Shown: positions 4,978 to 64,000 of the stretch, in pieces
How positions within the stretch are numbered: position 1 is the first letter of the stretch
Layout of the letters: every line of letters begins with the position of its first letter
Source: Candidatus Saccharimonadota bacterium
Lineage (GTDB): Bacteria; Patescibacteriota; Saccharimonadia; Saccharimonadales; JAXHMH01
Assembly (NCBI GenBank): GCA_034521515.1
Contig: JAXHMH010000002.1
Coordinates: 152,379-216,378 of the forward strand
DNA length: 64,000 nt
Direction of reading: 5' to 3'
Position numbers and translations under genes: made by a program
Notes under the pieces: model-generated
The model's database searches: none
The model's input: the letters and a program-made list of their open reading frames with translations, nothing else
Told to the model about the DNA's origin: nothing

Positions 4978-4986
4978 TTATCCACA
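4978..4986 (+). promoter_or_regulatory. TTATCCACA motif (perfect DnaA-box consensus 9-mer), copy 1, about 360 nt upstream of the gene A start
   Basis: aaaGTTATCCACAGcc read directly. It has the same orientation and a similar distal-upstream position as the copies at 19712-19720 and 54630-54638. Confidence 0.5.
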
Positions 4987-5066
4987 GCCATTTTTAAAAA
5001 TGTCTCAACCATTCTCGCATCTCTTACATTTTTTAAACAAAGTGCCCATAAAGCATTCGCTTGTCC

Positions 5067-10634: not shown

Positions 10635-10637
10635 AGC

Positions 10638-19385: not shown

Positions 19386-19711
19386 TTGTTTTTGTTTTGT
19401 TTTTGATCTACACGTTTTTTGTATTTTTGTTTTGGTAGATCTAGGGTTTAGTATGGCGGAATCTGGGTTGTATGACAAGAGGTATTCAAGGGAAAGCAAA
19501 GTCAGGTCTACGACAGCCGACAGACAGTGCAAATATACTGGTTCTTTGTGACATTATAGTTGTGATTTTTACATCCTTAGTTTCCAGATAACGGGGTTAA
19601 ACTGCAGGTTTAAATTAGTGTAGTAGCAAATATAAGATGACATGATATGGATGGGGTCGGTAGCACGCAAACAATGCACTAGCGCCCAAAATTGAACACA
19701 TAATGTATAAG

Positions 19712-19720
19712 TTATCCACA
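19712..19720 (+). promoter_or_regulatory. TTATCCACA motif, copy 2, about 330 nt upstream of ATG 19385 and just downstream of the rplU terminator
   Basis: taaGTTATCCACAGga. On the minus strand it sits between TTGATT and TATACA (TTGATTtttccTGTGGATAActTATACA, 16-nt spacing), a possible promoter. Confidence 0.5.
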
Positions 19721-19735
19721 GGAAAAATCAACAAT

Positions 19736-19766
19736 TTATAAAAAACACCGCAGGAACGCGGTGTTT
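19736..19766 (-). terminator. Rho-independent terminator after rplU
   Basis: The minus strand reads AACACCGC-gttcct-GCGGTGTT followed by TTTTTATAAA. The stems are at 19744-19751 and 19758-19765. Confidence 0.75.
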
Positions 19767-19793
19767 TCGTGAATCTTAGGTTCGTAGCTTGAG

Positions 19794-20102
19794 CTAAGCT
19801 ATTTTTGTCACCTTAATAACACTATGGCGCTGCCGGTGGCCGCGTGTTTTATGTACACGTTTTTTAGCTTTATATCTAATAGCTGTCACTTTGTCTGCTT
19901 TTACTTCCGGCTCAACCACCTCAGTTGTCACCTTAGACCCAGTTACCTCTGGCGTGCCAACAGTTGTTTTGTCGCCATCAATAACAAGAAGGGGTGTAAA
20001 CGTCGCAGTTTTGCCTTCTTGTTTGAGCAGCTCCACCTCAAGGGTTTCCCCTTCTACGACTAGGTACTGCTTGCCACCTGTCGCAATGATTGCTTTTTTC
20101 AT
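19794..20102 (-). CDS. rplU: 50S ribosomal protein L21
   Basis: MKKAIIATGGKQYLVVEGETLEVELL.. 102 aa, typical L21 N-terminus and size. Confidence 0.95.
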   Translation of the reverse strand: MKKAIIATGGKQYLVVEGETLEVELLKQEGKTATFTPLLVIDGDKTTVGTPEVTGSKVTTEVVEPEVKADKVTAIRYKAKKRVHKTRGHRQRHSVIKVTKIA

Positions 20103-20171
20103 ACAATTACTCTTACCTTTTGAAATGTTACCGATTGAGTCTAACAGAGAAGGGTATACTTGTCAAAAGTG

Positions 20172-23063: not shown

Positions 23064-23324
23064 ATCTTTACCTCTTTATAAAACAAAAAGCCCCTACTGC
23101 TGCAGGAGCCGGCATGCGTGCCGTCGGTTCCATCCTGCTTGGGACTTTATTACCAGCTATAACGGGCTACGTGCCGTCGAGTTCTACTAGCTGCTTGCCC
23201 TTCGTAGCCTTGGGCGAAGTAGGGTTCTTCTCGCTCCCCTTCGCTACGATAGCGAAATTGTGGGTGATAACCACTATCCACCAGTTGGCGGAGGGATTTG
23301 CTCCAGTACTGCTATTTCAGTTTA
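23064..23324 (-). promoter_or_regulatory. Structured ileS 5' leader, T-box-like transcription attenuator (candidate)
   Basis: The 286-nt gap contains a possible promoter (TTGTCC, 17 nt, TAAACT at 23347-23319). A T-box-like sequence cAGGATGGAACCGACGG (rc of 23118-23145) compares with the canonical AGGGTGGTACCGCGG. An ATC-A lies in GGTTATCACCC. A terminator hairpin plus U-run ends 17 nt before the SD AAAGAGG. Caveat: the UGGA bulge does not match the A discriminator of the tRNA-Ile seen at 61457-61533. Confidence 0.4.
23081..23109 (-). terminator. Intrinsic terminator inside the ileS leader
   Basis: The minus strand reads GCTCCTGC-AGCA-GTAGGGGC (8 bp including two G-U pairs) followed by TTTTTGTTTT. 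Confidence 0.6.
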
Positions 23325-23349
23325 GCCTAAATAACCAAAGTGGACAAGT

Positions 23350-23610
23350 CTACAGATACGACGCCACCTCATCCATGAGGGGCAAATCTTCACCTTGCCA
23401 GACCTTCAGCGTTGATCCGTCATCTCGAAGTGCCAGAAGTGCTGGATATTGAACTATATCGTATATGCTCGCTGTTGCGCTACCCTCACGAGTATCAAGA
23501 CTTACCATCTCTATCTTTGTCTGTGGATGAAGTCGTTTAAACATCCCCACAAACTCATCAACTTTGCGGGCATATTCTGATACCGGTCGGTAAATAACCA
23601 AAAGTTTCAT
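23350..23610 (-). CDS. Small conserved hypothetical protein (86 aa; possibly a thioredoxin-like fold without CxxC)
   Basis: ORF MKLLVIYRPVSEYARKVDEFVGMFKRLHP.. preceded by a CA-rich leader (CCAAAAACCAAAAACC). No motif recognised with certainty. Confidence 0.6.
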   Translation of the reverse strand: MKLLVIYRPVSEYARKVDEFVGMFKRLHPQTKIEMVSLDTREGSATASIYDIVQYPALLALRDDGSTLKVWQGEDLPLMDEVASYL

Positions 23611-23765
23611 GTTGCTTAGTGTATAGGTTTTTGGTTTTTGGTTCCAGTAGATTGTCTTGATTTTTGGAACACATACTTCGCCACAGTCACTGTGGGGTGC
23701 GGCGAAGCAATGTTTTTAACGACACTTACTTTTTTAGGGTTTTGATGACCTGTGAGCAATAGGTA

Positions 23766-38077: not shown

Positions 38078-39835
38078 TTATAACGTCCGGGCAACCGCTT
38101 CACGCGTGAACAACTCTACTCTGTCGCCTTCTTGTAAATCTATTTTTGACTTGGTTGCTAAACTCATGCCGCACATTTCACCCTCAATAATCTCTTTGGC
38201 ATCCTGAGGGCCACGCTTAAGATTAGTCACCTCTACTTCTGTCAACTCTTCACCGTCACGTATAATTCGAGCAAGAGCTGGAACGGTTAGCTTCCCTTTA
38301 GTTACCTCACCGCCACAGATAATTTCCGTTTTTGTTGTTTTAAATACACCTTTTATGAGAAGTCTGCCTAGGTCGGTTTCGACAATTTTTGGTGCAAGTA
38401 GCTTTGTGAGCTCTTCTTTTACATCATCTATCAATTCATAAATTATACTGTACAAACGAATCGGCAACTTGTCCCTGTTAGCCAACCGTTTAACATCCGG
38501 AGGTACTGCCACATTAAAACCATAAATAATAGCACCACTCGTCTGAGCAACATGGACATCATTCTTATTGACAGCACCGACACCGGAACTGACAATCCGC
38601 ACCGCCACTTCACTAGTATCAAGCGCCCTTAGGCTGTCTAGTACCGATGTTAAAGAGCCCTGAACATCAGCCTTAACAATAACATTTAGCTCAGTGAGCT
38701 CATTGGCCCGGTTAATCATACGAATCATCTCTGAACTATTGATATCTAGCAGACCGCCAGATGATTGTCGTTTTGCACCCTCATTGGCTGCAGCTTGCCT
38801 TGCTGTTTTTTCATCTTTTTTAGCTTCAAATTCGTCGCCAAACTCTGGCAACGACTTAAAGCCGGTAATTATAACTGGAGTTGAAGGAGTTGCCTCTTTG
38901 ATTGGCTTGCCAGTGGTGGTCTCTAGATTACGCACGCGCGCATAAGCTGATCCGGCAGTGACGTAGTCCCCGGGATGTAAAACACCGGCCTCCACCAACG
39001 CTATAGCTACCGGTCCGCGACCCTGCTCCATATGAGATTCGATGACCAGACCGCGCGCTGGAACATCAACATCAGCACGCAAATCCTCGACATCTGCCAC
39101 AAGTAGCACCATATCAAGTAACTTATCAATGCCGGTCTTCTGCAAAGCACTCACTTCAACGGTTATGGTTTCGCCGCCCCACTCCTCAACCAGAAGGTCA
39201 TGTTCAGACAATTGTTGCTTAATCCGATTAGCATCAGCTTCCGGCTTATCAATCTTATTTATGGCAACAACAATCTTTACACCGGCTTTGCGGGCATAGC
39301 GAATTGCCTCGATTGTCTGTGGCTTAATACCATCATCTGCTGCCACGACCAATATAACTACGTCGGTTAGCTGTGCTCCATGCTCCCTGAGCGCTGCAAA
39401 AGCTTCATGACCCGGTGTATCCAAAAACGTGATGTCGCGATCGCTGTGCCGTATCTGATAGGCAGAAATATGCTGAGTGATACCACCGGCTTCACCCTTA
39501 ACTTCATCGCTCTCACGGATAGCGTCCAGTAAGCTAGTTTTGCCGTGATCAACATGACCCATAACAGCCACAACCGGTGGCCGTCCAGTAGCTTTATCGC
39601 TCATTTTTTGCTTGGTTCGGCCTTGTGACTCCTCTGCTACCTTATGTGTTAACTCCACATCAAGGTCAAGTTCACCGACGATAATCTGCGCGGTATCAAA
39701 ATCAATGCGCTCATTAAGAGTCGCCATGATACCGTTTTTCATTAGCTCAGTAATCAGCTGCGTTACCGGTATCTTTAGCCGTTCAGCCAGCGAGCCGACG
39801 GTAATCATGTCTTCGACTTCAATTTTTGTTGCCAT
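38078..39835 (-). CDS. infB: Translation initiation factor IF-2 (short N-terminus)
   Basis: VMGHVDHGKTSLLDAIR, DTPGHEAF and NKID motifs. Confidence 0.95.
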   Translation of the reverse strand: MATKIEVEDMITVGSLAERLKIPVTQLITELMKNGIMATLNERIDFDTAQIIVGELDLDVELTHKVAEESQGRTKQKMSDKATGRPPVVAVMGHVDHGKTSLLDAIRESDEVKGEAGGITQHISAYQIRHSDRDITFLDTPGHEAFAALREHGAQLTDVVILVVAADDGIKPQTIEAIRYARKAGVKIVVAINKIDKPEADANRIKQQLSEHDLLVEEWGGETITVEVSALQKTGIDKLLDMVLLVADVEDLRADVDVPARGLVIESHMEQGRGPVAIALVEAGVLHPGDYVTAGSAYARVRNLETTTGKPIKEATPSTPVIITGFKSLPEFGDEFEAKKDEKTARQAAANEGAKRQSSGGLLDINSSEMIRMINRANELTELNVIVKADVQGSLTSVLDSLRALDTSEVAVRIVSSGVGAVNKNDVHVAQTSGAIIYGFNVAVPPDVKRLANRDKLPIRLYSIIYELIDDVKEELTKLLAPKIVETDLGRLLIKGVFKTTKTEIICGGEVTKGKLTVPALARIIRDGEELTEVEVTNLKRGPQDAKEIIEGEMCGMSLATKSKIDLQEGDRVELFTREAVARTL

Positions 39836-43277: not shown

Positions 43278-43977
43278 GCAAAGGTCTGACCTTTGCGAGT
43301 GTTATGTGTCCGCTAGTAAAACTTTTATGCTTTCTAGTTGATGTTTGTGGTCTTCGTAATCCTCAATAAAGTTTTCGTAACTTTCAGTGCCGTCAAAAAG
43401 TTCTAAGATACGTCCTGGCTTCACCCAATCACTACGCCATCCGTTAATGTAATATGGTAAACTCGAGAATTCCCAACTTTTATATGATTCAGGATTAAGG
43501 TGTATGTATCGCGAGATGTGTAAAAGGTATGCATCTTCAAGAATATGAGAAGCCTTATAAACACCTTGGAGCAAATGCCCTACTCTAACGTGCCGCTTAT
43601 TGAAGTATGTTGTATATGAGCTCGTCACTTTTTGCATCATTTTAGCTATAGCTTTTGGATCGGAGTTTAGGTAAAACAACAGGTGGAAATGATTTGGCAT
43701 CAAGCAAAACGCTAACAGCTCAACCCTTTCAGCGTAGCTTTCGTATATATTTCCGCGATCGTCTTTGTGCTCTTCTGGGCTAAGATAACGCTTTAGCAAA
43801 TTCAGAAATACTGCGTAATCTTGATCGTCTATAAAAATATTCCGCTTCTCTACGCCACGGTTGTAAACATGATAAAAAGACTGTTCTACGTACTGCTTTA
43901 CAGCATTCTTCGATGGCATACGTGTAATATACTTGATTCCTACCCCTCTTGCAAAGGTCAGACCTTTGCAAGAGGGG
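43278..43977 (-). mobile_element. RAYT/IS200-like unit: Y1 transposase gene flanked by inverted copies of a type 2 palindrome
   Basis: GCAAAGGTC-t-GACCTTTGC at 43278-43296 lies 6 nt past the stop. CCCCTCTTGCAAAGGTC-a-GACCTTTGCAAGAGGGG at 43943-43977 lies 24 nt upstream of the start. The central t/a difference shows the two copies are mutually inverted. Confidence 0.75.
43302..43919 (-). CDS. REP-associated tyrosine transposase (RAYT) / IS200-like HUH Y1 transposase, 205 aa
   Basis: YHVYNRGVEKRNIFIDDQDYAVFLNLL.., HUH motif in LMPNHFHLLF, and catalytic Tyr context ISRYIHLNP. Confidence 0.85.
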   Translation of the reverse strand: MPSKNAVKQYVEQSFYHVYNRGVEKRNIFIDDQDYAVFLNLLKRYLSPEEHKDDRGNIYESYAERVELLAFCLMPNHFHLLFYLNSDPKAIAKMMQKVTSSYTTYFNKRHVRVGHLLQGVYKASHILEDAYLLHISRYIHLNPESYKSWEFSSLPYYINGWRSDWVKPGRILELFDGTESYENFIEDYEDHKHQLESIKVLLADT

Positions 43978-45864
43978 TAAGGGTTGCTCGGTAGTAGGTT
44001 TTGTTTGCTTTTACTGCTGTTAACAACAGTGTGAGGGGTTAGTTGGTGGTGGTTATGGTGATGTAGTCAAAACGGTAGGTTTTGTTAGGTTCAAGAGGGG
44101 TGTTGGAACCGACTTTAAAGCCGTCGGCTGTGCGTTCTATGTACAGATCTAGCCCGGTACTACCGGCACCTACCGGCATAAGATTGACCCGTGGTATGGC
44201 GTCATCTACCGATTCTGCAAAGAGTACTTTTGCAAGTATTCCCTTCTCTATCTCAACGCCCTCGTTAGTCGTAAAGGTAATTGTTCCGGCCATGTCAGTA
44301 CCCTCTAGATCGACAGAGCCCTTATCGCCCTGCAGTACCCCACCAAGCTCTATAGCTGGTGTCTCGGTTGTGTGGCTGAGTATACGTCCGCCAACGGTTA
44401 GGTTGCTGGTAACGGTGGCGGTTTTAACGGTAAGATTGTTCTCTACCGTTAGGTTGCCTTGGACGGTGGCGTTGCCAGTGACGGTTAGATTAGAGATGAC
44501 GGCTGGGCCAGATACGTTGAGCATCGGCACGCTCAGGGCGTTGCCTTGTAGGTCGCTTACGTCGGTGTCTTGTATGCCTGGTAGGTAGGTTTCTGGTTGC
44601 ATGAACAGTTCAATGGTGCCAATCTCGGTTGGGTCAGTGTTGGTGTAATCTTCCAGAGCATAACCGATGATACGGGTGGCGCTGGTGGCTTTGCGGCCAA
44701 CACCAGGGTGCTCTAGGCTAATGGTTATAGGATCGCCTGCCTTGATGTTGCCGTTCTCGGTGGTGACTTTAACTGGCACACGACCAGCCAGTGCCACCTC
44801 TACTGAATGAGGCGCGTCAGCAAGATCCGGGTTATCTTTCCAGCCCAGGACAAATCCAGGGTCTGTAGAGACAACTCCCATAAGTGGTGCACTGCCGTCA
44901 GCAACCGTTGTATAACGGCTATGGTTAGTATCTGCTGATACGATAGTACCTGGCTCAATCATTTCTGTGGCGCCGTAGAGTTCTGCAATATCAAAGGCGT
45001 TGGCGGTAATTGAACCGTCTGCACGGATTGTACCAGCCGCAGTACTGCAGTCGTCCGCACTGTCGTCACTGACACAGAGCCCGCCCTGCACTTCTAGCGT
45101 GGTGTCGGCACTGGCAGTACCAATACCGACGTAGCCGGTTAAATTATTCACATGCAGTAGTGAGCTCATATTTAGCTCGTGTATTTCTATCTCATCTAAG
45201 GCCATGTCACCTGTAAAGCTAGAGCCTCGGATACCTACAAAGCGGATATCAACAACACCAGAGAGTTCGGATAGGTCTACTGTCTCCTCAAACCACTCAT
45301 CGCCCTGGTCACCACTCATTGACCACTGTTCTTCCCACAGACCGCCGTCTTCCGAGGTTTCTAGACGGAGTTCACCCATACTCGCCCCGTACATATGATA
45401 GTAGAAGCTAATATCAAAGCCGTCAGGATACAAGCTGGTATCAATATTACTGGCGTAGTCAAGAATGGCTTGATCGTCTTGTGCAACTGGATCTGAAGTT
45501 TCGTAGTAAACATACCAGCTCGTGCCGTCCGCGCCACTCGACGGGCCGGTACCAGAGCTTGTTGTGGTGCCACTATTACGTGTCCAGTCCTGGTCATCAC
45601 CGGCAGCGTTCACCCAATCATCAAAACTGGCCTCAAAAGTAGAGTTGCTAATAGTGCTTGCGACAAGCCGGTCAGCTACGTTTAATCCGCCTAACACATC
45701 AAGCTTAGACTGCGGGTTAGCCACACCGATGCCGACGTTGCCGCTATTTGGTTGTAGTAGCAGGTTTTGACCGGACTGGATCTTTGGAACTTCTAGCATG
45801 CCTTGGATGGAAGCGTTAGTAACAACATTCGCAGTCGAGTCAGGTCTGTCTGGTTGTCGAGGAA

Positions 45865-47830
45865 TTTCATGTCGATGGCGGTGAGAGTCGGCGTCGTCAC
45901 TTGCCACGTAAGCATAGGTACCGTCGATGTGGACGCTGCGGGCGCCGTTCAGGTTGGTGGAGGTGTGGCTGCCCAGTTCGGTCAGATTGGCGGGGTCGGA
46001 GATGTCGATGGCGGTCAGGGAGCCGGCATTTCCACTGGCCACGTAGGCGTATGAGCCGTCGATGTGGACGCTGCGGGCGCCGTTCAGGTTGGCGGAGGTG
46101 TGGCTGTCCAGTTCCACCAGGTTATTCGGGTCGGAGATGTCGATGACGGTCAGGGAGTCGGCATACCAGCTGGCCACGTAGGCGTATGAGCCGTCGATGT
46201 GGACGCTGTAGGCGCCGTTCAGGTTGGCGGAGAGTGCGGCCGTCCAGCTCGACCAGGTTGATTCGGGTCGGAGACGCTCGATGACGGCCAGGGAGTCGGC
46301 ATAACAGCTTGCCACGTAGGCGTACGAGGCGGTCGACGTGGACGCTGCGGGCGCCGTCCAGGTTGGCGGAGGTGTGGCTGTCCAGTTCTACCAGGTTATT
46401 CGGGTCGGAGATGTCGATGGCGGTCAGGGAGTCGGCATCCCTGCTGGTCACGTAGGGCGTATGAGCCGTCGATGTGGACGCTGCGGGCGCCGTTCAGGTT
46501 GGCGGAGGTGTGGCTGTCCAGTTCCACCAGGTTACTCGGGTCGGAGATGTCGATGGCGGTCAGGGAGCCGGCAGAATAGCTTGCCACGTAGGCGTATGAG
46601 CCGTCGATGTGGACGCTGTTGGCACCGCCCAGGTTGGCGGAGGTGTGGCTGTCCAGTTCCACCAGGTTACTCGGGTCGGAGATGTCGATGGCGGTCAGGG
46701 AGGCGGCGTATTCGCTGGCCACGTAGGCGTACTGAGCCGTCGATGTGGACGCTGTTGGCGCGGTTCAGGTTGGCGGTGCTGAGGGAGTTTAGTTGTGCGA
46801 ATGAGTTCTGGCGGATCGAGCCGTTGACGTTCAATCGGTTCTGAAACGGTCACTTGACCCCGGGTATGTTTACTGGTGACTCGCGTGATGTCGATGGCGG
46901 TCAGGGAGTCGGCAGTTTCACTGGCCACGTAGGCGTATGAGCCGTCGATGTGGACGCTTTGGGCGTCTTCCAGGTTGGCGGAGGTGTGGCTGCCGAGTTC
47001 GGTCAGGTTACTCGGGTCGGAGATGTCGATGGCGGTCAGGGAGTCGGCGTATTCGCTGGCGACGTAGGCGGTGGTGCCGTCGATGGGACGCTGCGAGCAT
47101 AGTACAGGTTGGCGGAGGTGTGGCTGTCTAGTTCGACCAGGTTATTCGGGTCGGAGATGTCGATGACGGTCAGGGAGTCGGCATTCCTGCTGGCGACGTA
47201 GGCGTATGAGCCGTCGATATAGACGCTGTTAGCACCGTTCAGGTTGGTGGTGCTGATGCTATCCAGCTCTACCAGGTTGGACGGGTCGGAGATGTCGATG
47301 GCGGTCAGGGAGTCGGCATAAAAGCTTACCACGTAGGCGTATGAGCCGTCGATATAGACGCTGTTGGCGCCTTCCAGGTTGGCGGAAGTGTAGCTGTCCA
47401 GCTCTACCAGGTTGGACGGGTCGGAGATGTCGATGGTGGTCAGGGAGTCGGCGTATTCGCTGGCGACGTAGGCGGTGGTGCCGTCGATGTGGACGCTGTT
47501 GGCGCGGTTCAGGTTGGCGGAGGTGTGGCTGTCTGAGCTCGACCAGGTTGGATTCGGGTCGGAGATGTCGATGGCGGTCAGGGAGTCGGCATCCCTGCTC
47601 GCGACGTAGGCGGTATGAGCCGCTCGACTGTGGACGTCGGAGGCGGCGTCCAGGTTGGCGGAGGTGTGGCTGTCTAGCTCGACCAGGTTATTCGGGTCGG
47701 AGATGTCGATGGCGGTCAGGGAGTCGGCATCCCTGCTCGCCACGTAGGCGTATGAGCCGTCGATGTGGACGTCGGAGGCGGCGTCCAGGTTGGCGGAGGT
47801 GTGGCTGTCTAGTTCGGTCATATCGTACCC
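45865..47830 (-). repeat. About 14 tandem 135-bp (45-aa) LVIVD-type beta-propeller repeats (DSLTAIDISDPNNLVELDSHTSANLNGARSVHIDGSYAYVAS..A), several with frameshifts
   Basis: Head-to-tail units read on the plus strand (..cacgtaggcgtatgagccgtcgatgtggacgctg..ggtcggagatgtcgatggcggtcaggg..). Examples of lesions are cacgtagggcg (extra g near 46450) and gtcgatgggacgctg (1-nt loss near 47085). The array is visibly more G+C-rich than the neighbouring core genes (not computed). Confidence 0.8.
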
Positions 47831-48419
47831 CGAACCCTGTGTGTCCACACGGAGAATGTCTGTACTAGTGCTGTTTTGTACGCGCAGGGCGTTGGCGTTA
47901 GGGGTACTAGATTTGAATAACACATCACCGTCAACATCAAGGCTCGCTTGTGGGCTAGAGGTGTTAACCCCAACGCGATTATTCTGCGTATCAGCCGTGA
48001 ATAGATTATCCCCGGCGGCGTTTTGAATTTGGAAGGCGGTGGCGCTGTCTGTTTTCGCTCTGGAACAATACATCGCCTGCTACATGCAGTTTAGCCTGTG
48101 GGTTATCTGTGCCGATTCCCATGTCGCCAGTAAGAGTCATATTGCCAATGAATTCGCTGTCTCCGGCAACCTTTAGTGCGTTCCCTGGTGCGACTTGGCT
48201 GACCATAGCATGGTTACGGTTGTCGCCAAAGTCGCTATCAGAGATTGCTACAAATCTTCCATTTCCATATACAACACCCAGCCACGTACTGGCATCTGCT
48301 GTCACCGTCTCCCACGTAATACCATCAACAGATGTCGCAACATGGGCAGGGGTGCCACCAATTGCATCACCGCTAGCTATCGCAACGAAAGTATTATTCC
48401 CATGGGTTATGGTTAACCA

Positions 48420-50170
48420 GTAAAGCGTGTTAAGTGAAGTGTCTTGGACTGATGTCCAGGTTTCGCCGTCGGAGCTTGTCATAACGCGGTTGGTGCCACT
48501 ATATGCTACGGCTACAAACGTACCGTTGCCGTAGGTGACAGAGCGCCAGCTGTTAGCTTCGGCGGCGGCGTGAGCGGCCAGGTTTCGCCGTCGCTGGAAG
48601 TCATGACACGGTTGGTACCGTCATCAGCTACGGCTACAAACGTACCGTTGCCGTAGGTGACAGAGCGCCAGCTGTCAGCTTCGGCGGCGGCGTGAGCGGT
48701 CCAGGTTTCGCCGTCGGAGCTTGTCATAACGCGGTTGGTGCCACCTACACGCTACGGCTACAAACGTACCGTTGCCGTAGGTGACAGAGCGCCAGCTGTT
48801 AGCTTCGGCGGCGGCGTGAGCGGTCCAGGTTTCGCCGTCGCTGGAAGTCATGACACGGTTGGTACCGTCATCAGCTACGGCTACAAACGTACCGTTGCCG
48901 TAGGTGACAGAGCGCCAGCTGTTAGCTTCGGCGGCGGCGTGAGCGGTCCAGGTTTCGCCGTCGGAGCTTGTCATAACGCGGTTGGTGCCATCGTGAGCAA
49001 CCGCAACAAATGTACTATTACCATAAGCAACGTCACTCCAATCCGCAGGGATGCCTGTATATGGTACCCACGCGGTGCTTGTCATTTCGGCAGCCACATA
49101 CAATCTTGCGTCTGTGGTCTCAGCCGACCCTACTGATAGACTCATGGAGCTTGTGTTCGCGTTAAGTAGCGTACTGTTCCCCGCGGCATTCTGCACGGTG
49201 AAGCTACTCGTAGAGTCTGCTTTTACATTAACGCTGCCATTCAAGCTCGTTCTGCCCTGGACATTCAATGCTAAACCTTCTGAAATGTCACTCGTCATGA
49301 CGCGGTTGGTGCCACTGCTTGCAACAGCGACGAAGCGACCGTTGCCGTACGTAAATGAGTTCCACCAGTTGGCCTCAACAGCGGAATATGGAGTCCAGAG
49401 TAAGGCCGTCTGGGGAGGTCATAACGATACTTTTCGCGGCAATTGCTATAAATGTACCATTTCCATACGCCACATTATCCCACGCATCAAGTTTGCTATC
49501 TGGCGTATTCGCAAACCAGGTTACGCCGTCGGTACTCGTCATAACACGGTCGCTTGACTCACTGCTGCCACCATTCCCTGCTACTGCAACAAAGAGACCA
49601 TCGCCATAGGTGACCGACTGCCAATCATTGTCTACCACGGCAGTCTGAGTAACCCAGCTAACACCGTCAGAACTGGTCATAACGTGATTAGTGCCATCGC
49701 CTGTCACAGCCACATAAACACCATTGCCATAGGTAACTGAGCTCCAGTAGTTGGCTTCAGCGGCGGTACGGGTGGCCGACGTTTCGCCGTCTGGGAGGTC
49801 ATGACGTGGTTGGTGCCACTGCTTGCCACCGCCACAAACTGGCCGTTGCCATAGGTGACGGATTGCCAGCGCCAGCTTCGGCGGCGGTGACGGGGGTGGC
49901 CCAGGTTATGCCGTCTGGGGAGGTCATGACGCGGTGCTGGGGTGCCTTCCCAGGAAACTGCGACGAAGGTGCCGTTGCCGTAGGTGACAGAGCGCCAGCT
50001 GTTAGCTTCGGCGGCGGTACGGGCAGTCCATGTTTCGCCGTCTGGGGAGGTCATGACGCGGTTGGTGCCACTGCTTGCGACGGCCACGAAGATGCCGTTG
50101 CCATAGGTGACGGATTGCCAGCTGTTAGCTTCGGCGGCGGTACGGTGGTCCCCACGTTTCGCCACCGGTA
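48420..50170 (-). repeat. About 14 tandem 123-bp Asp-box-like blade repeats, the same family as 11800-13735, interrupted by frameshifts
   Basis: Fragments translate to ..WRSVTYGNGTFVAVADDGTNRVMTSSDGETWTAHAAAEANS.. across four or more different ORF pieces. Confidence 0.8.
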
Positions 50171-53100
50171 CCATACGTAAAGCTTGTTGCATCTACGTTT
50201 AATCGTGCTATCGGATTATTGCTGCCAATCCCAACACTCATATTCTGAGTATCGGCAGTAAACAGGCTGGAACCAGAAGTATTTTGAATCTGGAAAGCTT
50301 CTGTGGTATCAGTGCCGTTCTGAATCACTACACCGCCGGTTGTACTCCCTAATACAAGGTTGTTGGTCTGGTTATCAAAGTGCATGGTGCCGTAGTTAGT
50401 GCTGTCTGTGCCTACCTTGATGGTGGATGAGGCTTCGAGGACACCGGTCTTAACACTGCGGCTACCCAGGCCAGCTCGTGGGGTGTACTCAGTCGTGTCA
50501 TCGGCTATGCCGTTAAAGCTGACCCAGCCGTAGTTCTCGCTCCAGGCGTAGCCGGTGTATTCACCGGTGTCTGGGTCGTGAGTGACACCACCGTCGGTTG
50601 GGTCCAGGTTAATCCAACCAGTAGCGGTGTTCCAGGCAAAGCCGGATAGTTCACCGGTGGTTGGGTTACGGTTGACACCGTAGTCTGTTTCATCTGTGTT
50701 GGCGTAGGTGTGCTCACCGCCTCCTGTGTATGTACCAAAGCTAATCCAGCCGGTGGTTTCGCCCCAGGCCATGCCTTCTAGGTGGTCTGGGTAGACGCGG
50801 ACGTCATACATCGTGCCAGGCTCTAGGTTAATCCAGCCAGTTGCAGCACTCCAGACGTAGTGATGTTCGCCGTCTGAGGTTGGGGAGACGTCTACTTCCC
50901 CACCAGTGAACTTTGGTGCGTGAACGGTTGTGGTGACTCTGCACCTCTTCTTTGGTGGTGTCGTAGCCGAGGGTAGGCGTCGTTGCCATGACTGTGCCAA
51001 TGTTGCATGGAGTTTGGCACGGACGTAGACGTCTTGCCGACGGTTGGTGCTCGGAGCCAAGGTCGTAGGTGTCATCCGCGCTTGGTCGTAGGATTAGAGT
51101 TAATACCGGCGTTTACTGTCAGTGTGTTAGATGAGTTGGTGCCAAGTACCGTATTACCGTCTACGTCTACGTTGGTAGTAAAGCTGCCTCCGGCCGGTTA
51201 CATCAAGATCACCGCCGGCTAGAATAAGATCGTTGCTGGTGTCTAGGGTAAGTGTGCCGGTGCCTTGGAGGAGTGTGGAGTCAACCACGTTCTGAGCAGC
51301 GTCGAACATAGCTAGACGGTTGGCGGTGCCAAGAGCCGGTGACTAGGCTACCACCGTCACTCGAAGTCACCCGTAGTTATTTGTGTGCCGTTAACCCGGT
51401 AGACGCCGGTTGTGTTTACATCTCCGTCGACATCCAGGGTGTATTGTGGGCTGATGACTGGAGCCATGGTCGACTCTGAGGTGTGGGCGTTGGTGGTGCC
51501 GACTCGCATCGTAGACTGTGGGGCGTGCTGGTGCCGAACTGGTGGTGTACCAGGGGAGTACCAGCGTGAGGCGCCGTCAACTGGTGGTACCGGGCCGACT
51601 TAGCTGCATTGGTGGGGAGATGGAGCCGTTTGAGCGTCGTTGGAGCCGGATCGTTATAGCGGACAGCTGACTGCTGGTGCCATGATGGTAGCAGTCGGCA
51701 GCATCAGCCATCAGGCGAGCCTGCACGCCTGCGGCGTTTTGGATTTGGAAGGCGGTGGTGGAGTTGGAGGGTGTCGAGTAGGGCTTCGCCGGTATTCAAC
51801 GGCTTAAGACTGTATGGTCTGTGGCGAGGAGTTCTAGCCGTAATTGTCCTGGGCGCTGTGACTCGTTTGCACCGAATGTGTCACCACCTTGACTGATGTT
51901 GCCACTGGTATCTGTGACACAATCTAGCCAGGCACCGTTTTCGTAGCAACGGAAGGTGTTGGACGTGGTATCGTAGTACGTGGCGCCGTTGACGCCGGTT
52001 GGGAGAAGAGTCAGAACCAAGCACAAGGGCAGTGCCAAACAATCGATATACGATTATTAGTGGTGTTAGCGGTAAGAGATTGGTAGTACCTGCGGCGTTT
52101 TGGATTTGGAAGGCAGTTGTAGAGTCTGTTTGGTTCTGGAATAGAGCTTGGCCGGCGACATCTAAGCCAGCATCTATAGCAACGGTTGAACCTGATTGGC
52201 TTATCAATGAGTCTATAACGGTGTTGTTATCATCAAACACTGGGATAGTGCCGGCAGTACCTGTGCCTACTGCCCAAGAAACATGAATACTGCCATCGCC
52301 CTCATTTCCTACCTCCACACCCATACCGGCGGGTACAAGCGATGACCCGCCGCCACCGCCGCCGCCACTATAAGTGCTTCCACCAGAGTCACCGGCACCG
52401 CCACCGTAATAACCGCCGCCACCGCCGCCACCGGCTGTATAACTAGTACATGTTGGGCAAGCATCGCCACCTACACCAAGTACACCATCTTCGCCATCGC
52501 CGTTGCCGGCACCACCTTCAGTTTGCGTACCTCCCTCGCCAGGATAACCACCATTCTGGCCAGCTTGTCCATTATGGTCACCGCCATGTCCGCCGTATTT
52601 ATTACCGTACCAGCCACTACCGCCGCCGCCGCCACCAGCAACCACGATACGATCGGTTAAGCCCGTACCTCCGCGACGTATATCGGTTGCACCACCACCG
52701 CCACCGCCAGTACGAAAATCGCTGTAACTATCTCCTCCACCGTTCCAGCCACCTGTAGGCGTACCTCCCGCGCCTCCTACGTAAAAATACAACGTCTCTC
52801 CTGGCGTAACATCCATGGTGCCAGATACAATTGCACCATCGCCGCCTCCAGTACCACTTTCAGCTGATACACCCCCTTCAGCACCTCGTAATTCAACAAA
52901 AATCTCGGTAACGCCAGCTGGTACGGTAAACTGTTGCATAGCCGACACGGACTCAAAAGTTTGACTACCAGCCTCTCCCGGAGTTAATACAAACGTACCT
53001 GTCGTATTGGGTAGTAAGTATGCCTGATCTGCAGTCAATGTAGCCGATTGTATGGTCGCACCGTTATTACTGAACCCGTCACCCAGCGTCAACAGGCCTT

Positions 53101-54629
53101 GCGTAACTGTGCCACTACTAGCAATTCTACCTAGTGTCAACCGTGCACCTGTTTCATTAAACGACGCGTTGACATTGCCGTCGCTATCTTGCAGCTGTAA
53201 TAAATCGGCGGTTTGTCCTGATGTGCCCTGCACAAGCAGGCCAGTATTGGTGCTTCCGCCTGTGGCAAGCGCGGTCTGAGCCGAGCTGTCAGCAGTGGAA
53301 AGCGTGTTTACACTGAGCGTGTTTGCCGGAGCAACGTTATTTATGCCTACCTGCCCGGTGTTTGAGACGGTCATACGGATGGTGTCGTTCGTCTTGATAT
53401 TCACATCACCGTCATTAACGGTACCGAGTACCATGGCAACGCTGCCGCCAAGATCATTGCCCCCTTGCAATATATCGCCGTAGCCTGCGGTGCCCCCTAT
53501 ACAATTGCCGGCAAACGTACAGACATTGTCACCGCTTTGCTGCAAGGTGCCGGTAAAGTTGGCCGTGGTGGCGTCATACAGTGCCACGTTCGAGCTTAGT
53601 CTGGCATCGGCCAGGGTGCCGGTGGTGATGTTTGTCGCGTGAAGGTCGGTCAGGCCGGAGCCGTCGCCCTCAAAGCTGCCGGCAATGATGGTGCCGGTGA
53701 GGTTGATGTGGCCGGTTTGGGGAGTGCCTGGAGTGGAGGCTTGTAGTAAAGCAAGCGTCCCACTGGCATCAGGTAGCAGAATTGATGGGTCGTTGGTGAT
53801 GGAGCTGAAGTTGAGGCTGCCGCGGTTGGTGCCGTCGTCTTGGTTGAGCTGGCCGGCACTTAGGGCGTGGGGTATGGCGGTTAGTTTGATTCTGGGGGTC
53901 ATCTCACCATCCCAGGTGGGAGAGCCAGTACCGCCGATGTTCATACTGAGCCATAGGTCTTGGTCCCAGTTGATGTCTGGCAGGCTGGTGACGGAACCCA
54001 GGTTGACGCTGAAGTAGCCGTTTCTAACCGTGACTTGGTCAGTGCTGGTGCGGGTTTCGCGCCAGGCACAGCTGCCGGAACAGCTGCCTTGGGCGCCACC
54101 AGTGTTGGTGGCATGATCGTGTAGTTTGAATTCTAGGTTGTAGGTGCCGTCAGGGACTATGTTGCCGGCACTGTTGTACAGACGGGCTTGGAAGTTGAGG
54201 TATTCACTAGTGGCGGCAGAGGTGGATTGCAGGGGTGGAATTAGGATTGACCAAACAAACAAAAACAGCACAAACAATAGCCCTGAGAGCCAGAGCTTGG
54301 CTGTGTTGAAAGGTAGGCGGTGTGACCGCTGTTTTTGGAACATTTGTTTTTGTTTTTTGGTTTGTTTTGGTTTTTTGTTTAAAAACCGTGACTTCATTAT
54401 CCTTCACTTAACAGATAGTATCAAGGGTGAATGTACACATAATTAACTCAATTATAAATCAATTATTTTTATCAAATTAATATAATTATATGTTGTTATT
54501 AGTACTACTACATCGACCTTTCTTACCTGTTTTTGTATAAAATATACTGTACGTATAATTGTTTTTATATATAAAATATTGATGTATTTATAACTACTAC
54601 ACTATAATTTCATAGAATTATTGTAATGG

Positions 54630-54638: not shown

Positions 54639-54689
54639 AGCCAACAAGACAAACTATCCATTTTTAAAGCAGTTTTAAGCCATCACCCT

Positions 54690-54730
54690 CTAACCCGACT
54701 GACAAGGTCAAACCTTGTCAGTCGGGTTAG
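54690..54730. repeat. REP-like palindrome (CTAACCCGACTGACAAGGT-caa-ACCTTGTCAGTCGGGTTAG), related to type 2 through its AAGGT/ACCTT core
   Basis: 19-bp perfect stem read directly. Confidence 0.8.
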
Positions 54731-54774
54731 GGTTTATCATTTAAGTTTAATATCCAAGTGTAGTACGTCTTATC

Positions 54775-56330: not shown

Positions 56331-57133
56331 CGTGTACATCTTAAGGTGTTCATGTCTTAAGACTTATCCTCCATTACTGAAGGCACGGACTATATCTTCA
56401 CCCTTCTTTATGTATTAAAGTTAGGGGCTGACGTATTATAGGTCACTGGTTGTGAGTCCTATCTCTCTGTCTGGTCTAGTGACAGATCAGTCTCTACGGG
56501 GACAAGTAAGCCACGCTCCTGCAAAAAAGTGATGACTTGTGCGTATCCGTTAGTGCGTTTCTTTGAATAGTTAAATGTAGCGGTCTTATCGACCAGCTCA
56601 CTTAACCGCACCAACCTTCTGGCGGTCATTTTTCGTTGCTCGGGATGTTGTTTGATTAATCTCAAGACATCTCTAGCGAGCACTTTTTTGAGTCGAAGAA
56701 AGGGATACAGAAGCAACAATACATGTTCTACTTCTCTTAAGCCGACTATGGTGTATTCGCTCATCCCGTCAGGGCGTCGGCGAACATATCCGTAGCCTAG
56801 CTGCTCCTTCAGCCAAAGGAGAAAATCTTGATGGTTTGTTTTCTGGTAGAAAACAACACTAACTCTAATCTGAAAACCCAATCGATAATCCTTGCGGCTT
56901 ATCAATTGCGCCATAATTGAGCCATCTCCATCTAAGAATCCAGCTATGTAGGCCTTTTCTTCATCTTGCATGGTCATTACTGTCTTCCCTCGGTATTGCC
57001 CTCTGGATCGTTCGTTTATCCAGGTGGGGTTTCACCGATATTAGTCAGATTTAGTGTTTTTTTCGCTATAAAGCGAAGATGCGATGTACATCAACACATT
57101 ACCACTTTTCAGTGGTAGAACGCAATGTAATTT
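56331..57133 (-). mobile_element. Group I intron (about 803 nt) in 23S inserted after the U2593 equivalent (the I-CreI-type site)
   Basis: The conserved exon GGGTTCAGAACGT ends at 57134 and resumes as CGTGAGACAGTTCGG at 56330. The 5' exon ends in U and the insert ends in G, as expected for group I. The insert contains a LAGLIDADG ORF. Confidence 0.8.
56459..56977 (-). CDS. Single-motif LAGLIDADG homing endonuclease (I-CreI-like), 172 aa, intron-encoded
   Basis: KAYIAGFLDGDGSIMAQL.., size and context. This is the only convincing ORF within the rRNA genes. Confidence 0.88.
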   Translation of the reverse strand: MTMQDEEKAYIAGFLDGDGSIMAQLISRKDYRLGFQIRVSVVFYQKTNHQDFLLWLKEQLGYGYVRRRPDGMSEYTIVGLREVEHVLLLLYPFLRLKKVLARDVLRLIKQHPEQRKMTARRLVRLSELVDKTATFNYSKKRTNGYAQVITFLQERGLLVPVETDLSLDQTER

Positions 57134-57141
57134 ACGTTCTG

Positions 57142-57188
<47 letters not shown>

Positions 57189-57202
57189 AAGATGCTCCAC
57201 CT

Positions 57203-57237
<35 letters not shown>

Positions 57238-57269
57238 AGCGCCGTCTATGTGAACTATTGGGCGCTATA

Positions 57270-57301
<32 letters not shown>

Positions 57302-57519
57302 GTGCGTCGTCGATCCCACGTTCATGTACAAATGTACGTACGACGGGTCACTAGCTCCCACTTTCGTGTCTGTTTGGCTCGTAGGCCTCACAGTCAAGCT
57401 GGCTTATGCGCTTGCACTATCAGTTCGATTTCCATCCGAACTTAGCCAACCTTTGAACGCCTCCGCTACTCTTTAGGAGGCAACCGCCCCAGTTAAACTA
57501 CCCACCAGACACTGTTCCC

Positions 57520-57650
57520 GAACCGGAAATTACCAACAATTTCCGGTTCAGTTAACGGCTGACAGTATACAGACAACAGTCTTTAAACTGTTTACTGTTA
57601 ACCATCTACTGTTAACCTGCGGAAAATTGTTAACAATTTTCGGCTCAGGT
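57520..57650 (-). other. ~130-nt insertion in 23S domain V built from hairpins
   Basis: AACCGGAAATTaccaacAATTTCCGGTT and CGGAAAATTGTTAACAATTTTCGG hairpins lie between conserved GAAATACCACCC and GGAACAGTGTCTGGTGGGTAGTTT. Confidence 0.6.
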
Positions 57651-57769
57651 GAGTACAAGATCGTAACAAGGGTGGTATTTCACCGGTGGCTCCACCTACG
57701 CTAGCGCGTAGGCTTCAAAGCCTCCCACCTATCCTACACATGTTACGACCCGGCACAATGTCAAGCTGT

Positions 57770-57801
<32 letters not shown>

Positions 57802-58771
57802 GCGGACAGACGGCATCTTTACCGTCAATGCACTTTCACCGAGCTCTTCGTCGAGACAGTGCCCAAATCATTACTCCATTCGTGCGGGTCAGAACTTACC
57901 TGACAAGGAATTTCGCTACCTTAGGACGGTTATAGTTACCGCCGCCGTTCACTGGGGCTTCAGTTCGCACCGTGAAGCGCTCCCCTTAACCTTCCAGCAC
58001 CGGGCAGGAGTCAGCCCCTATACATCCACTTTCGTGTTAGCAGAGACCTGTGTTTTTGGTAAACAGTTGCTTGGGCTCCTTAGCTGCGGCCCCGTCACAC
58101 TATCTACCACGATAGTGCCCTTTTGTAGGGGTCAGCTTCCTTCTGATTTGTTTGTCTCGAGTATTACTCGTTTATACAGGTCCTTGCAAGAAGTTAAAAA
58201 CTTGCATGAACTACTGTTTTGATCTCGTTTTCAAAAGAAAACTGGCTTTACATGTCACACGTGATAAACACTGTGACGGGGCAGACCTTATCCCGAAGTT
58301 ACGGTCGCTGTATTGCCGAGTTCCTTGACGAAGATTCACTCGTACGCCTTGGTCTTCTCGACCTGAGCACCTGTGTCGGTTTGCGGTACGGATAGCCATG
58401 CACATAAGTTTGGAAGCTTTTCTGGTCAGCACTCTCACAAGAATCAGCCTGTTAAGGCCTCTCATTCGTGGTTGTTACGCCACTTAGACGGGTATAACCA
58501 TGAACCCGCTCCTGCTAACATGCCGCGCACTCCAAACAATACAAGACTAGTACGGGAATATTAACCCGTTGTCCATCGCCTACGCTACGCGCCTCGGCTT
58601 AGGACCGACTAACCCTGGGACGATTACCGTGGCCCAGGAAACCTTGCTCTTTCGGCGGGCAGGATTCTCACCTGCCTTATGGTTACTCATTCCAACATTC
58701 TCACTTGATACCGCTCCACCAGACCTTACGATCTAACTTCAGCGCAATATCAACGCTCCTCTACCGCTCGC

Positions 58772-58901
58772 GCGATGCGCAAGAAACTCCAGAAACCAAA
58801 AACCAAAATTCAGAGAAAGACCAAAAATCAAAGATTTGAAAATTGAAGTTGAGACTTATCTGAAATTTGAAGTTTGAGGTTTGAAATTTCTTGCGCATCG
58901 C
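58772..58901 (-). other. 130-nt IVS-like hairpin in 23S (helix-45-like site) closed by 15-bp perfect inverted repeats
   Basis: GCGATGCGCAAGAAA (58772-58786) and TTTCTTGCGCATCGC (58887-58901). The interior consists of CAAA/TTTG-rich complementary arms. Confidence 0.7.
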
Positions 58902-59518
58902 ACAAGCCCATATCTTCGGTGCTATGCTTTAGCCCCGTTACATTTTCCGCGCGAGATCTCTTGACGAGTGAGCTGTTACGCACTCTTTAAATGAATGGCT
59001 GCTTCTAAGCCAACATCCTCGTTGTTTAAGAAATCTCACCTCGTTTCCCACTTAGCATAGACTTGGGGACCTTAGATGATGGTCTGGGCTGTTTCCCTTT
59101 CGAGCGCCGAGCTTAGCCCCGGCGTTCTGACTGCTGTAGTTCCACTGATGGTATTCGTAGTTTGTCAAGGGTGGGTACGATCACTCGCCCCAGTCCGAAA
59201 CAGAGCTCTACCCCCATCAGCTACCGTACAACGCTAGCCCTAAAGCTATTTCGAGGAGAACCAGCTATCTCCAGGTTCGATTGGCATTTCACCGCTAACC
59301 ACAGGTCATCCGAGCATGTTGCAATATGCGACGGTTCGGTCCTCCACGTAGTTTTACCCACGCTTCAACCTGCCCATGGTTAGGTCACCTGGTTTCGGGT
59401 CTACTCCGCATAACTAAATCGGCCTATTCAGCCTCGCTTTCACTACGCCTCCGTCAAATGACTTAGGCTTGCTATGCAGAGTAACTCGTTGGATCGTTCT
59501 ACAAAAAGCACGCCGTCA

Positions 59519-59602
59519 CCCTGCAGTAGACTTTCGATCAGTTTTGCTACGCAAAACCGTATCCATTCGCAAAGCGAATGGCATCGAAAGCTCACTGCAG
59601 GG
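59519..59602 (-). other. ~84-nt extension of the helix-25-equivalent hairpin of 23S
   Basis: CCCTGCAGT (59519-59527) and ACTGCAGGG (59594-59602) close an extra hairpin where E. coli has a short helix (GGGAGCACGCTTAGGCGTGTGACTGCG). Confidence 0.55.
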
Positions 59603-59665
59603 CTCCGACTCCTTGTACGCACACAATTTCAGGTTCTATTTCACTCCCCTTCCGGGGTTCTTTTA

Positions 59666-59696
<31 letters not shown>

Positions 59697-59789
59697 ATCG
59701 TAAGATATATTTAGCCTTGGGACGTGGTCGTCCCGGATTCAGTCAGGGTTTCACGTGTCCCGACCTACTCGACATACGGCTCGCGCTTT

Positions 59790-59878
59790 GCACGAGCAAG
59801 TTAAAAGCCGAAAGTTAAAAGTTAAAAGCCCTAAGACTTTATACTTTAAAACTTTATATACTTTTCACTCGCTTGTGC
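59790..59878 (-). repeat. AU-rich hairpin insertion, family 2, in 23S domain I
   Basis: gcacgagcaagttaaaagccgaaagttaaaagttaaaagccctaagactttatactttaaaactttatatacttttcactcgcttgtgc. It is homologous to the spacer element 55429-55490 and lies just 5' of the conserved ..GAGTAGGTCGGGACACGTG. Confidence 0.65.
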
Positions 59879-60134
59879 TCCGCACAAGCCCTACAAATAT
59901 AAGGTTAGCGAGACTTGGCATACCGGGCTTTCACCGTCTCTGGCGGAACTTTCCAATTCCTTCTGCTCGCCTCGCTAATTTCTGACCTTATGCAGACTAA
60001 TGGTAGCGTCTGCAGCCTTATGCAAAGACTGAATAAATTCAGTTCCTGCAAAAGGTTGTTTGTAGTGTCACAACCCCCATTATGCATTAGCCTACCAGCC
60101 TTACCGGCTGCATCTCGCTTCGCTCGAGCTAATG

Positions 60135-60209
60135 CAATAGATGATAGTTGATAGATGATAGTTGATAACAAATGTCATTAACTATTAACTATTTTCCTAT
60201 TAACTATTG
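60135..60209 (-). repeat. AU-rich hairpin insertion, family 1, in 23S domain I
   Basis: caatagatgatagttgatagatgatagttgataacaaatgtcattaactattaactattttcctattaactattg. The ends CAATAG../..CTATTG are complementary. It is homologous to the 16S insertion at 63829-63904. Confidence 0.7.
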
Positions 60210-61141
60210 CTCTAGCTTGTCGAACAAAGTGAGACACAGCTGGAGCATAAAAGGTTTGGGCTCTTCCGCGTTCGCTCGCCACTACTAACGGAATCGTTGT
60301 TTACTTTCTCTTCCTCGAGGTACTAAGATGTTTCAGTTCCCCCGCTTACCGCCATATAGCCTATGAATTCAACTATAGGTGACTAGACATGACTCTAGCC
60401 GGGTTTCCCCATTCGGAAATCTTCGGTTCAAAGCTTAGTCAGCAGCTCCCCGAAGCTTATCGCAGCTCCTCGCGTCCTTCATCGGTATCTTACGTCAAGG
60501 CATCCTTTGTGTGCGCTTGTGTAACTTTTTACGATTCCACAACTTGTAACACTTTAGCCTACCGTCCAGCAAAGCTGGCCGCACTGCTAAAGCTCTTGAG
60601 GTATTGCTTTGTCAGAAACTGTGCTACTCCTTCACCGTATTAATATACGGCACAGTCCGTTGCTTGTTTCTTCCGTGCACTGCACTCAAGTACGAAGTTA
60701 TGGGTCATTAAGTGCAATCCTTCTTCGCTTCCAAAGGAAGCTACGAAGGACCGTTCATAGCCTAAAAGGCGACGAACGGTTGACTAGTTGTTGGTAATTA
60801 CCAACTACTCACAACTTCGCATCGCGCTGACTGCTCGCCAGCAGAGCTGCCGATCTGTCATCACTTTTGGCGCATCACTGCGTCAGTTACTCCGATACTC
60901 GCTCACCGTACTATTAGTACGACTCGCTCCGTTTCTCATAACTTCCTTGTGCTGCATCCAAATGCAATAGTTGTGTTGCCGTTTGCCTTATTTCTCATTT
61001 CTTTACATCAGATTGTTAAGATACAAACTCAAGACATCCCCACTGTAAGAATATATCTTGCTGCGTATAGAACTTGAGTTTACGTTTCTGGCTTGGCGGT
61101 TTAGACGTCAAACAAATGACCTAAACTCAAGCAGCCAGAAC

Positions 61142-61291: not shown

Positions 61292-61368
61292 GGGGCAATA
61301 GCTCAGTTGGCTAGAGCACCTGCTTTGCAAGCAGGGGGTCCGGGGTTCGAGTCCCCGTTGCTCCACCA
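61292..61368 (+). tRNA. tRNA-Ala (anticodon UGC), CCA encoded
   Basis: GGGGCAATAGCTCAGTTGGCTAGAGCACCTGCTTTGCAAGCAGGGGGTCCGGGGTTCGAGTCCCCGTTGCTCCACCA. It has the G3:U70 pair, anticodon loop tTTGCAa and GTTCGAGTC T-loop. Confidence 0.95.
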
Positions 61369-61456
61369 AAAATTACACTCAAACAAGGCCGGTCGGCTAA
61401 GTTGGCCGGAGAGCGTTACCGAGGATATACTTTTACAAACATTGAGTTTTTCTGAT

Positions 61457-61533
61457 GGGGCTATAGCTCAGTTGGTTAGAGCGCGTCACTGATAATGACG
61501 AGGTCGATGGTTCGAGTCCACCTAGCCCCACCA
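61457..61533 (+). tRNA. tRNA-Ile (anticodon GAU), CCA encoded
   Basis: GGGGCTATAGCTCAGTTGGTTAGAGCGCGTCACTGATAATGACGAGGTCGATGGTTCGAGTCCACCTAGCCCCACCA. Confidence 0.95.

Positions 61534-62520: not shown

Positions 62521-64000
<1,480 letters not shown>

Follow-up and report, generated by a model that had tools for sequence, protein, structure and literature searches.

A block of small indels divides a giant surface-protein gene of a Candidatus Saccharibacteria genome and probably reflects a poor local consensus

Collapsing alleles that differ in their internal repeats, or that carry nearby variants, introduces frameshifts and insertion/deletion (indel) errors into long-read assemblies (PMC8445201), and long-read errors are a documented cause of gene pseudogenisation (PMC12007338). 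The gene considered here, paralogue D, is one of four giant surface-protein genes (A, B, C and D), all encoded on the minus strand, that lie in a 64-kb window, the whole stretch of DNA analysed, which forms part of a 706,252-bp contig from a Candidatus Saccharibacteria metagenome-assembled genome (MAG) deposited in GenBank. Most likely, D is intact and encodes a giant cell-surface protein of ~3,390 amino acids; the block of indels that breaks its frame probably stems from a consensus left unpolished, or collapsed from several variants, over repeat-rich sequence. Its closest relatives are giant surface proteins of Saccharibacteria and the Candidate Phyla Radiation (CPR), including (i) P0124 (3,203 amino acids) and (ii) P0128 (2,656 amino acids), together with (iii) the LVIVD-array protein P0125 (1,927 amino acids, with LVIVD blades of near-identical consensus). 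They share with D the N-terminal module, the TAFQIQN linkers, the 41-amino-acid blades, the LVIVD blades and the W-x-GW domain; in contrast to D, however, each is an intact single open reading frame (ORF), and the best are 38-53% identical over parts of D, hence no orthologue.

The D locus comprises two clean ends and a broken centre, organised as follows:

44039-54397, minus strand: paralogue D, whole locus; the stitched best frame path gives one protein of ~3,390 amino acids without a stop
52081-54397, minus strand: clean 5′ part of D, with start codon, signal/transmembrane leader, N-terminal domain and ALK_LTK_GRD; no frame switch
45835-52080, minus strand: indel-rich block, to which the 21-23 net frame switches are confined; at least 30 indels of 1-2 nt mapped, and no in-frame stop on the repaired path
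51760-52147, minus strand: C-like segment, ~91% identical to paralogue C; an exact 74-nt C/D repeat (52074-52147) followed by eight small deletions
50151-50937, minus strand: W-x-GW-type repeat domain and linker, 88% identical to C 11167-11670 at another position in the protein; within MDZ7744328.1
48198-50163, minus strand: arrays of 123-nt (41-amino-acid) beta-propeller blades, SVTYGNGxFVAV...TSxDGxTW, matching EPTP and DUF6242
45742-47845, minus strand: LVIVD array, ~15 blades of 135 nt, Pfam PF08309
44039-45834, minus strand: clean 3′ part of D, with MAM and a C-terminal Peptidase_G2/IMC-like region, ~600 open codons and no frame switch

The stitched D product amounts to 3,386 amino acids with zero stop codons and displays, in order, (i) the leader, (ii) a conserved N-terminal module common to A, C and other Saccharibacteria giants, (iii) an ALK/LTK-type glycine-rich domain (PF12810, 70.1 bits versus a cut-off of 24.5, above gathering), (iv) TAFQIQN linker modules, (v) the W-x-GW repeat domain, (vi) the 41-amino-acid propeller blades of EPTP/DUF6242 type, (vii) ~15 LVIVD blades (PF08309, 141.9 bits versus a cut-off of 20.2 over seven stretches of the stitched middle, and 62.7 bits in the 3′ ORF), (viii) MAM (PF00629, 70.3 bits versus 26.4, above gathering), and (ix) a C-terminal region, whose match to the Peptidase_G2/intramolecular-chaperone family (PF11962), at 19 bits under a cut-off of 25, is a resemblance only. 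In the public record this locus is held as separate proteins, MDZ7744319-MDZ7744330, with locus tags from U5K77_00955 onward. The two ends correspond to an 838-amino-acid ORF at 51881-54397 on the minus strand (MDZ7744330.1) and a 758-amino-acid ORF at 44039-46315 on the minus strand (MDZ7744319.1, U5K77_00955), and the record lists five of the ORF fragments between them as hypothetical proteins in their own right (U5K77_00960 to 01000). No mention of the locus tag, the protein accession prefix or the Sequence Read Archive (SRA) run was found in the literature.

The reading frame along D was followed with a three-state Viterbi path using codon log-odds trained on A and C, and paralogue C served as the reference for the lesions of D. 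The genes used for comparison include:

from 4670 past the left window edge, minus strand: paralogue A, one open frame of >1,556 codons
5067-10634, minus strand: B, a Kelch/LamG protein of 1,855 amino acids
10638-19385, minus strand: paralogue C, U5K77_00835, intact, 2,915 amino acids as annotated
38078-39835: IF-2, MDZ7744313.1

At switch penalties of 10-14 the tracker reports 21-23 switches in D and 0-1 in the controls A, B, C, IleRS, RNR and IF-2, and every switch in D falls between 52080 and 45835. The initial annotation, made from the same letters, had placed a frame-broken middle of D at 52050-46300 with at least 12 disruptions; the broken middle stands with the wider limits 52080-45835, and the count proves an understatement, with 21-23 net switches and at least 30 indels of 1-2 nt mapped singly, the total likely being 40 or more. 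The thirteen tiling ORF fragments described there do tile the locus, as 17-20 open stretches of at least 50 codons in shifting frames along the minus strand from 54403 to 44042. Both ends had been called open, which is accurate for the 5′ 2.3 kb and the 3′ 1.8 kb, but the damage reaches into both end ORFs: the 838-codon ORF leaves the frame of C over its final ~65 codons, and the 758-codon ORF contains two compensated frameshift tracts, at ~46277-46233 and 45885-45835. At the 5′ end of D the leader is kept as claimed, along with the start and the domains; a promoter/terminator scan around D gave promoter counts at chance level. The statement that the errors are not window-wide agrees with the present checks, in which A, B, C and every housekeeping gene tested are intact; the intact neighbours include def, fmt, the ROK kinase, FtsZ, adenylate kinase, YqeY, IF-2, IleRS and RNR.

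The individual lesions are spaced at ~1 per 150-200 nt inside otherwise conserved units. Nucleotide alignment with C discloses eight deletions, 11 nt in total, at 52073, 52039, 52003, 51863, 51856, 51836, 51800 and 51771, within a block otherwise ~91% identical, so that the several indels relative to C noted earlier are recovered and all prove to be deletions; two insertions relative to C follow at 50955 and 50936. These insertions flank, on its 5′ side, the open stretch 50151-50937, which ends 3′ at a frame switch at ~50150, and compensated shifts at 51091-50938, overlooked by the frame tracker, emerge from protein matches to C and P0128. The 123-nt propeller blades carry one insertion of four bases and several single-base changes, and at 48454-48990 a 246-nt two-blade super-repeat shows 98% identity, its copies differing by three substitutions, one added G and one lost A (Tandem Repeats Finder period 247). 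Relative to the 135-nt unit consensus, the LVIVD array has insertions at 47628, 47623, 47613, 47551 (2 nt), 47535, 46732, 46457, 46332, 46277, 46260 and 46233, and deletions at 47085 and 45885; outside a divergent 206-nt blade, the 14 mapped events comprise 12 insertions and 2 deletions. The two lesions cited as examples in the initial annotation both occur as described: CACGTAGGGCG, with the extra G, is found once, at 46449, against 8 copies of CACGTAGGCG, and GTCGATGGGACGCTG, with the lost T, once, at 47079, against 7 copies of GTCGATGTGGACGCTG. Three clusters in the array restore the frame by themselves, namely (i) +G, +G and +C at 47628-47613, (ii) +CC and +C at 47551-47535, and (iii) +G, +C and +T at 46277-46233.

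The lesions occupy 6,246 of the 10,356 nt of D (60%), with none in the 5′ 2.3 kb or the 3′ 1.8 kb, a distribution that uniform placement would produce with P = 1.5e-5 for 22 events and P = 1.6e-9 for 40. If the shifts were real, the 3′ 1.8 kb would be unprotected because it is untranslatable downstream of >20 frameshifts, yet it retains ~600 open codons and a strong MAM match. All lesions are indels: the ~2,040 repaired codons contain no in-frame stop, and neither nonsense changes nor larger deletions are present. About 2.55% of random substitutions in the repaired codons of D would make a stop; the absence of any stop thus allows at most ~118 unselected substitutions (95% bound), which implies an indel-to-substitution ratio of ~0.3 or more, at least several-fold above that usual for bacterial pseudogenes. 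Measured against C, the ratio of nonsynonymous to synonymous divergence (dN/dS) of D stands at 0.29 for the broken block (52309-51760), compared with 0.24 for the adjoining intact part and 0.045 for 50954-50450. The substitutions still bear the mark of purifying selection, with the caveat that C is a paralogue and old divergence dilutes any signal of relaxation. Spontaneous bacterial indels concentrate in homopolymers; most of the mapped indels lie outside them, and runs of at least 5 bases occur in the block at 0.16 per kb. Several clusters of same-sign indels fall within 20 nt and sum to 3 bases, and a G is inserted after TCGA twice. At conserved LVIVD columns, positions within 8 nt of an indel carry singleton mismatches 5 times as often as the others (10/100 versus 22/1073, Fisher p = 1.7e-4), and such clusters are what misaligned heterogeneous or noisy reads yield.

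A probable course of events is that the deposited sequence of the central 6.2 kb is a poor local consensus inside an otherwise accurate 706-kb contig. Long reads over this stretch would have been scarce or noisy, or else the reads would have come from several strain variants whose repeat-rich segments are not alike; polishing would then have failed in the central 6.2 kb, leaving a residue of random 1-2 nt insertions and deletions and small misalignment clusters, about one per 150-200 nt, and gene callers would finally have cut D into 12 pieces. Such a history of sequencing and assembly would predict that the reads restore a single ORF. The D locus is probably strain-variable in the sampled population.

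An independent assembly, that of run SRR26473340 in Logan, matches the window exactly outside D, in two contigs:

2081-11270: Logan contig SRR26473340_195492, 100% identity, gapless, 9,190 nt; ends 30 nt inside an exact C/D repeat
19369-23723: Logan contig SRR26473340_12126, 100% identity, gapless, 4,355 nt; ends 30 nt inside a repeat of the 5′ ends of C and D

The exact C/D repeats at these breaks pair 11241-11297 with 50524-50580 and 19330-19398 with 54288-54356. Both contigs stop k-1 = 30 nt (k = 31) inside the C/D repeats; hence D-type sequence is in the read set and the contig ends are predictable. Logan indexes products cut at a contig edge, and none of the five D products to be expected there if the reads equalled the deposited contig was found (edge products 44039-45949, 50125-50553 and 49704-50000, and fragments P0156 and P0157). 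Six of the 11 non-D genes tested are present; protein B is in Logan, and its contig is the one that equals 2081-11270. Exact look-ups of the D end ORFs gave no match. These failed look-ups count as negative results only, because, if the block is an assembly error, the true D products in Logan are not encoded in the window; the absence of D products, negative and indirect as it is, agrees in direction with the other signs of an artefact.

Several points weigh against a consensus error: (i) the verdict is drawn from assembled sequence; (ii) C is intact despite similar 123-nt repeats, so repeats alone are insufficient; (iii) the 52.1-50.9 kb part is without tandem repeats; (iv) the indel bias shifts from deletions in 8/8 events at 52.07-51.77 kb to insertions in 12/14 events in the LVIVD array, and thus no single simple error model predicts the pattern; (v) no orthologue that would show an intact D was found in the collections searched; and (vi) the Logan evidence is negative and hinges on the prediction of contig ends and on the calling of genes, while some breaks of Logan contigs, such as those at 23723 and 2081, are not predictable.

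The initial annotation left three explanations unranked, an inactivated paralogue, a cassette archive, and unpolished indels or collapsed strain variation; the third is favoured here and the other two are disfavoured. A genuine pseudogene, silenced in this population and gathering small indels, whose 838-codon 5′ ORF may still yield a truncated secreted protein, is an unlikely alternative. The deposited D is broken in at least 21 places beside three intact paralogues, whose redundancy makes the loss of one copy plausible, and the 5′ ORF retains its start, leader and domains. All eight lesions relative to C are deletions, which fits the deletion bias of bacterial mutation, but insertions prevail in the LVIVD array. 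The intactness of C with its similar repeats and the change of indel bias along the block leave some room for decay. Nevertheless, a decaying gene accounts poorly for zero nonsense changes in ~2,040 codons despite >30 indels, for a dN/dS of 0.29 that stands at the level of the intact part, unrelaxed, or for a 3′ 1.8 kb that is lesion-free though untranslatable, the lesions being held to 60% of the gene (P ~1e-5). Most indels are non-homopolymer, clusters in which three +1 insertions jointly bring back the frame within 20 nt would be senseless in a dead gene, and the D fragments are missing from the Logan assembly.

The middle of D might also act as a non-expressed cassette archive that donates to C or A by segmental gene conversion, in the manner of pilS, vls or msp2, a proposal we regard as very improbable. 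The C/D identity mosaic, with exact shared stretches of up to 138 nt, attests to past recombination between the paralogues, but mosaic identity is expected in any paralogous surface-protein family; D has its own ATG start, leader and upstream region, being neither promoterless nor 5′-truncated; with 1-2 nt indels inside its units, D would often pass on a frameshift along with any tract that it donated; nothing in C, or in the part of A that the window shows, corresponds to the LVIVD array, which makes up about a third of the block; and the propeller blades are just 70-75% identical to those of C. Equally little credence attaches to the wider notion that the indels are real and that the middle of D is an unusually indel-prone untranslated reservoir of blade and domain sequence, flanked by an intact start and an intact 3′ end and recombining with the expressed A and C to vary the host-contact surface. 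Phase variation by slipped-strand events, or programmed frameshifting, is barely credible: a few lesions do alter short runs (near 49800 CCCC has become CCC, and at 51856 GG has become G), yet no long homopolymer or short-repeat tracts lie at the lesions (0.16 runs of at least 5 bases per kb), most lesions occur in non-repetitive context, and we know of no precedent for a single gene with >20 programmed shifts. Recoding by an alternative genetic code was dropped, the breaks being frame changes with no stop in the repaired frame.

Comparison of D with C highlights how uneven their relationship is. The first 617 nt of the two genes (54356-53740 and 19398-18782) are 95.6% identical without gaps and the next 2 kb 82%; identity is ~91% at 52.3-51.76 kb, and a 505-nt domain (50954-50450 and 11670-11167) is 88% identical at different positions in the C and D proteins. 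Such a mosaic points to gene conversion, or to the shuffling of domains between paralogues, in the past. Beyond the window, neither the GTDB representative genomes nor the JGI metagenomes nor the protein collection yielded an orthologue of D: a scan of the GTDB representatives and JGI metagenomes with the D-specific 3′ protein gave only LVIVD fragments of 37-52% identity, and a comparison of 51093-50128 with the representatives gave only the NCBI fragment P0154 (100%), followed by matches of at most 60% identity. Protein searches gave no close D relative among the matches listed, which measure ~0.55-1.75 times the query length and from which P0154-P0158 and C are also absent; this silence is not evidence, because short Logan partial proteins could not have appeared.

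Within D, one LVIVD blade (46690-46895) measures 206 nt versus 135 nt, its 71 extra nt forming a divergent loop unlike the 1-2 nt lesions elsewhere. The LVIVD array shows 61% G+C and a strong GC skew at 46000-48000, where the surrounding genome region has ~45% G+C; D overall has 52-61% and C 51-53%. The LVIVD blades may be a recent acquisition or may have been shaped by biased conversion. Directly 3′ of D lies an IS200/Y1-type transposase gene (43302-43919, 205 amino acids, MDZ7744318.1); Logan lacks a complete copy of it, which points to an element in several copies or to a contig end at this site. On the other side of D, in the interval that separates it from the 5S gene, a perfect 20-bp inverted repeat (CTCTAACCCGACTGACAAGG...CCTTGTCAGTCGGGTTAGGG) occupies 54688-54732, ~300 nt before the D start.

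Elsewhere in the window, A, B and C stand head to tail on the minus strand at 1-19532, all three intact, with a B-C gap of just 3 nt. Further frameshifts suspected in def/fmt and in ROK with its downstream ORF were rejected, Pfam identifying separate complete genes. The rRNA operon occupies 55.3-64 kb. Its minus-strand 16S (62521-64000) and 23S (57065-60531) genes are separated by a 2-kb spacer containing tRNA-Ala(tgc) and tRNA-Ile(gat) on the plus strand (61292-61533), an orientation opposite to the rRNA genes that they usually accompany, which may reflect either a genuine rearrangement or an assembly error at this place. Against a 2,925-nt model, the 23S match extends over 3,467 nt, and a weak group I intron match at 56367-57143 (35.7 bits, E 2.4e-6, under the gathering score) surrounds a LAGLIDADG endonuclease ORF (56459-56977) at or just beyond the 23S 3′ end, with the 5S gene 1.65 kb beyond this intron/LAGLIDADG site; rRNA introns with a LAGLIDADG ORF are common in CPR bacteria. 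Runs of A or T number 136 (5 nt), 54 (6 nt) and 3 (7 nt) in the 64 kb, with none of 8 nt or longer, a cliff that could be natural avoidance or a trace of sequencing chemistry. As a hint of nanopore sequencing it is not relied on, given that the intact genes argue against systematic run compression.

If the block is indeed a consensus error, the twelve 'hypothetical proteins' MDZ7744319-MDZ7744330 are pieces of one giant surface protein, and the counts of pseudogenes and small ORFs in such MAGs are inflated at hypervariable surface genes that are key to the contact between episymbiont and host. The probable strain variability of D is mildly interesting for Saccharibacteria biology. Real indels, which the present evidence makes unlikely, would turn the locus into an unusual case of decay by indels alone or into a candidate donor archive, worth following up in either case; a silent-donor system of antigenic variation would be a first for the CPR.

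Compared with described systems, D resembles silent-cassette loci (Neisseria pilS, Borrelia vls, the Anaplasma msp2 pseudogenes and Mycoplasma genitalium MgPar) in having repeated segments homologous to an expressed surface gene and evident past recombination, but it differs in its own start and leader, in cassettes that are out of frame, in a third of the block without a target in C, and in being one copy rather than a donor array. Neutral-decay pseudogenes, such as those of Mycobacterium leprae, Rickettsia and Sodalis, share with D many frameshifts in one paralogue whose relatives are intact; there, however, mixed and gene-wide lesions are expected, whereas those of D are indels only in the central 60%, without nonsense or larger deletions, with an unrelaxed dN/dS and with clean ends, including the untranslatable 3′ end. 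Errors of long-read and collapsed-haplotype assembly (PMC8445201, PMC12007338) come nearest: as in D, they consist of indels only, split a long repeat-containing ORF into same-strand fragments and include some local clusters beside variant positions, while the rest of the assembly is accurate. In D, distinctively, the lesions affect a single gene in 64 kb, and within it a single 6.2-kb block, and are mostly non-homopolymer; D would presumably belong to this class.

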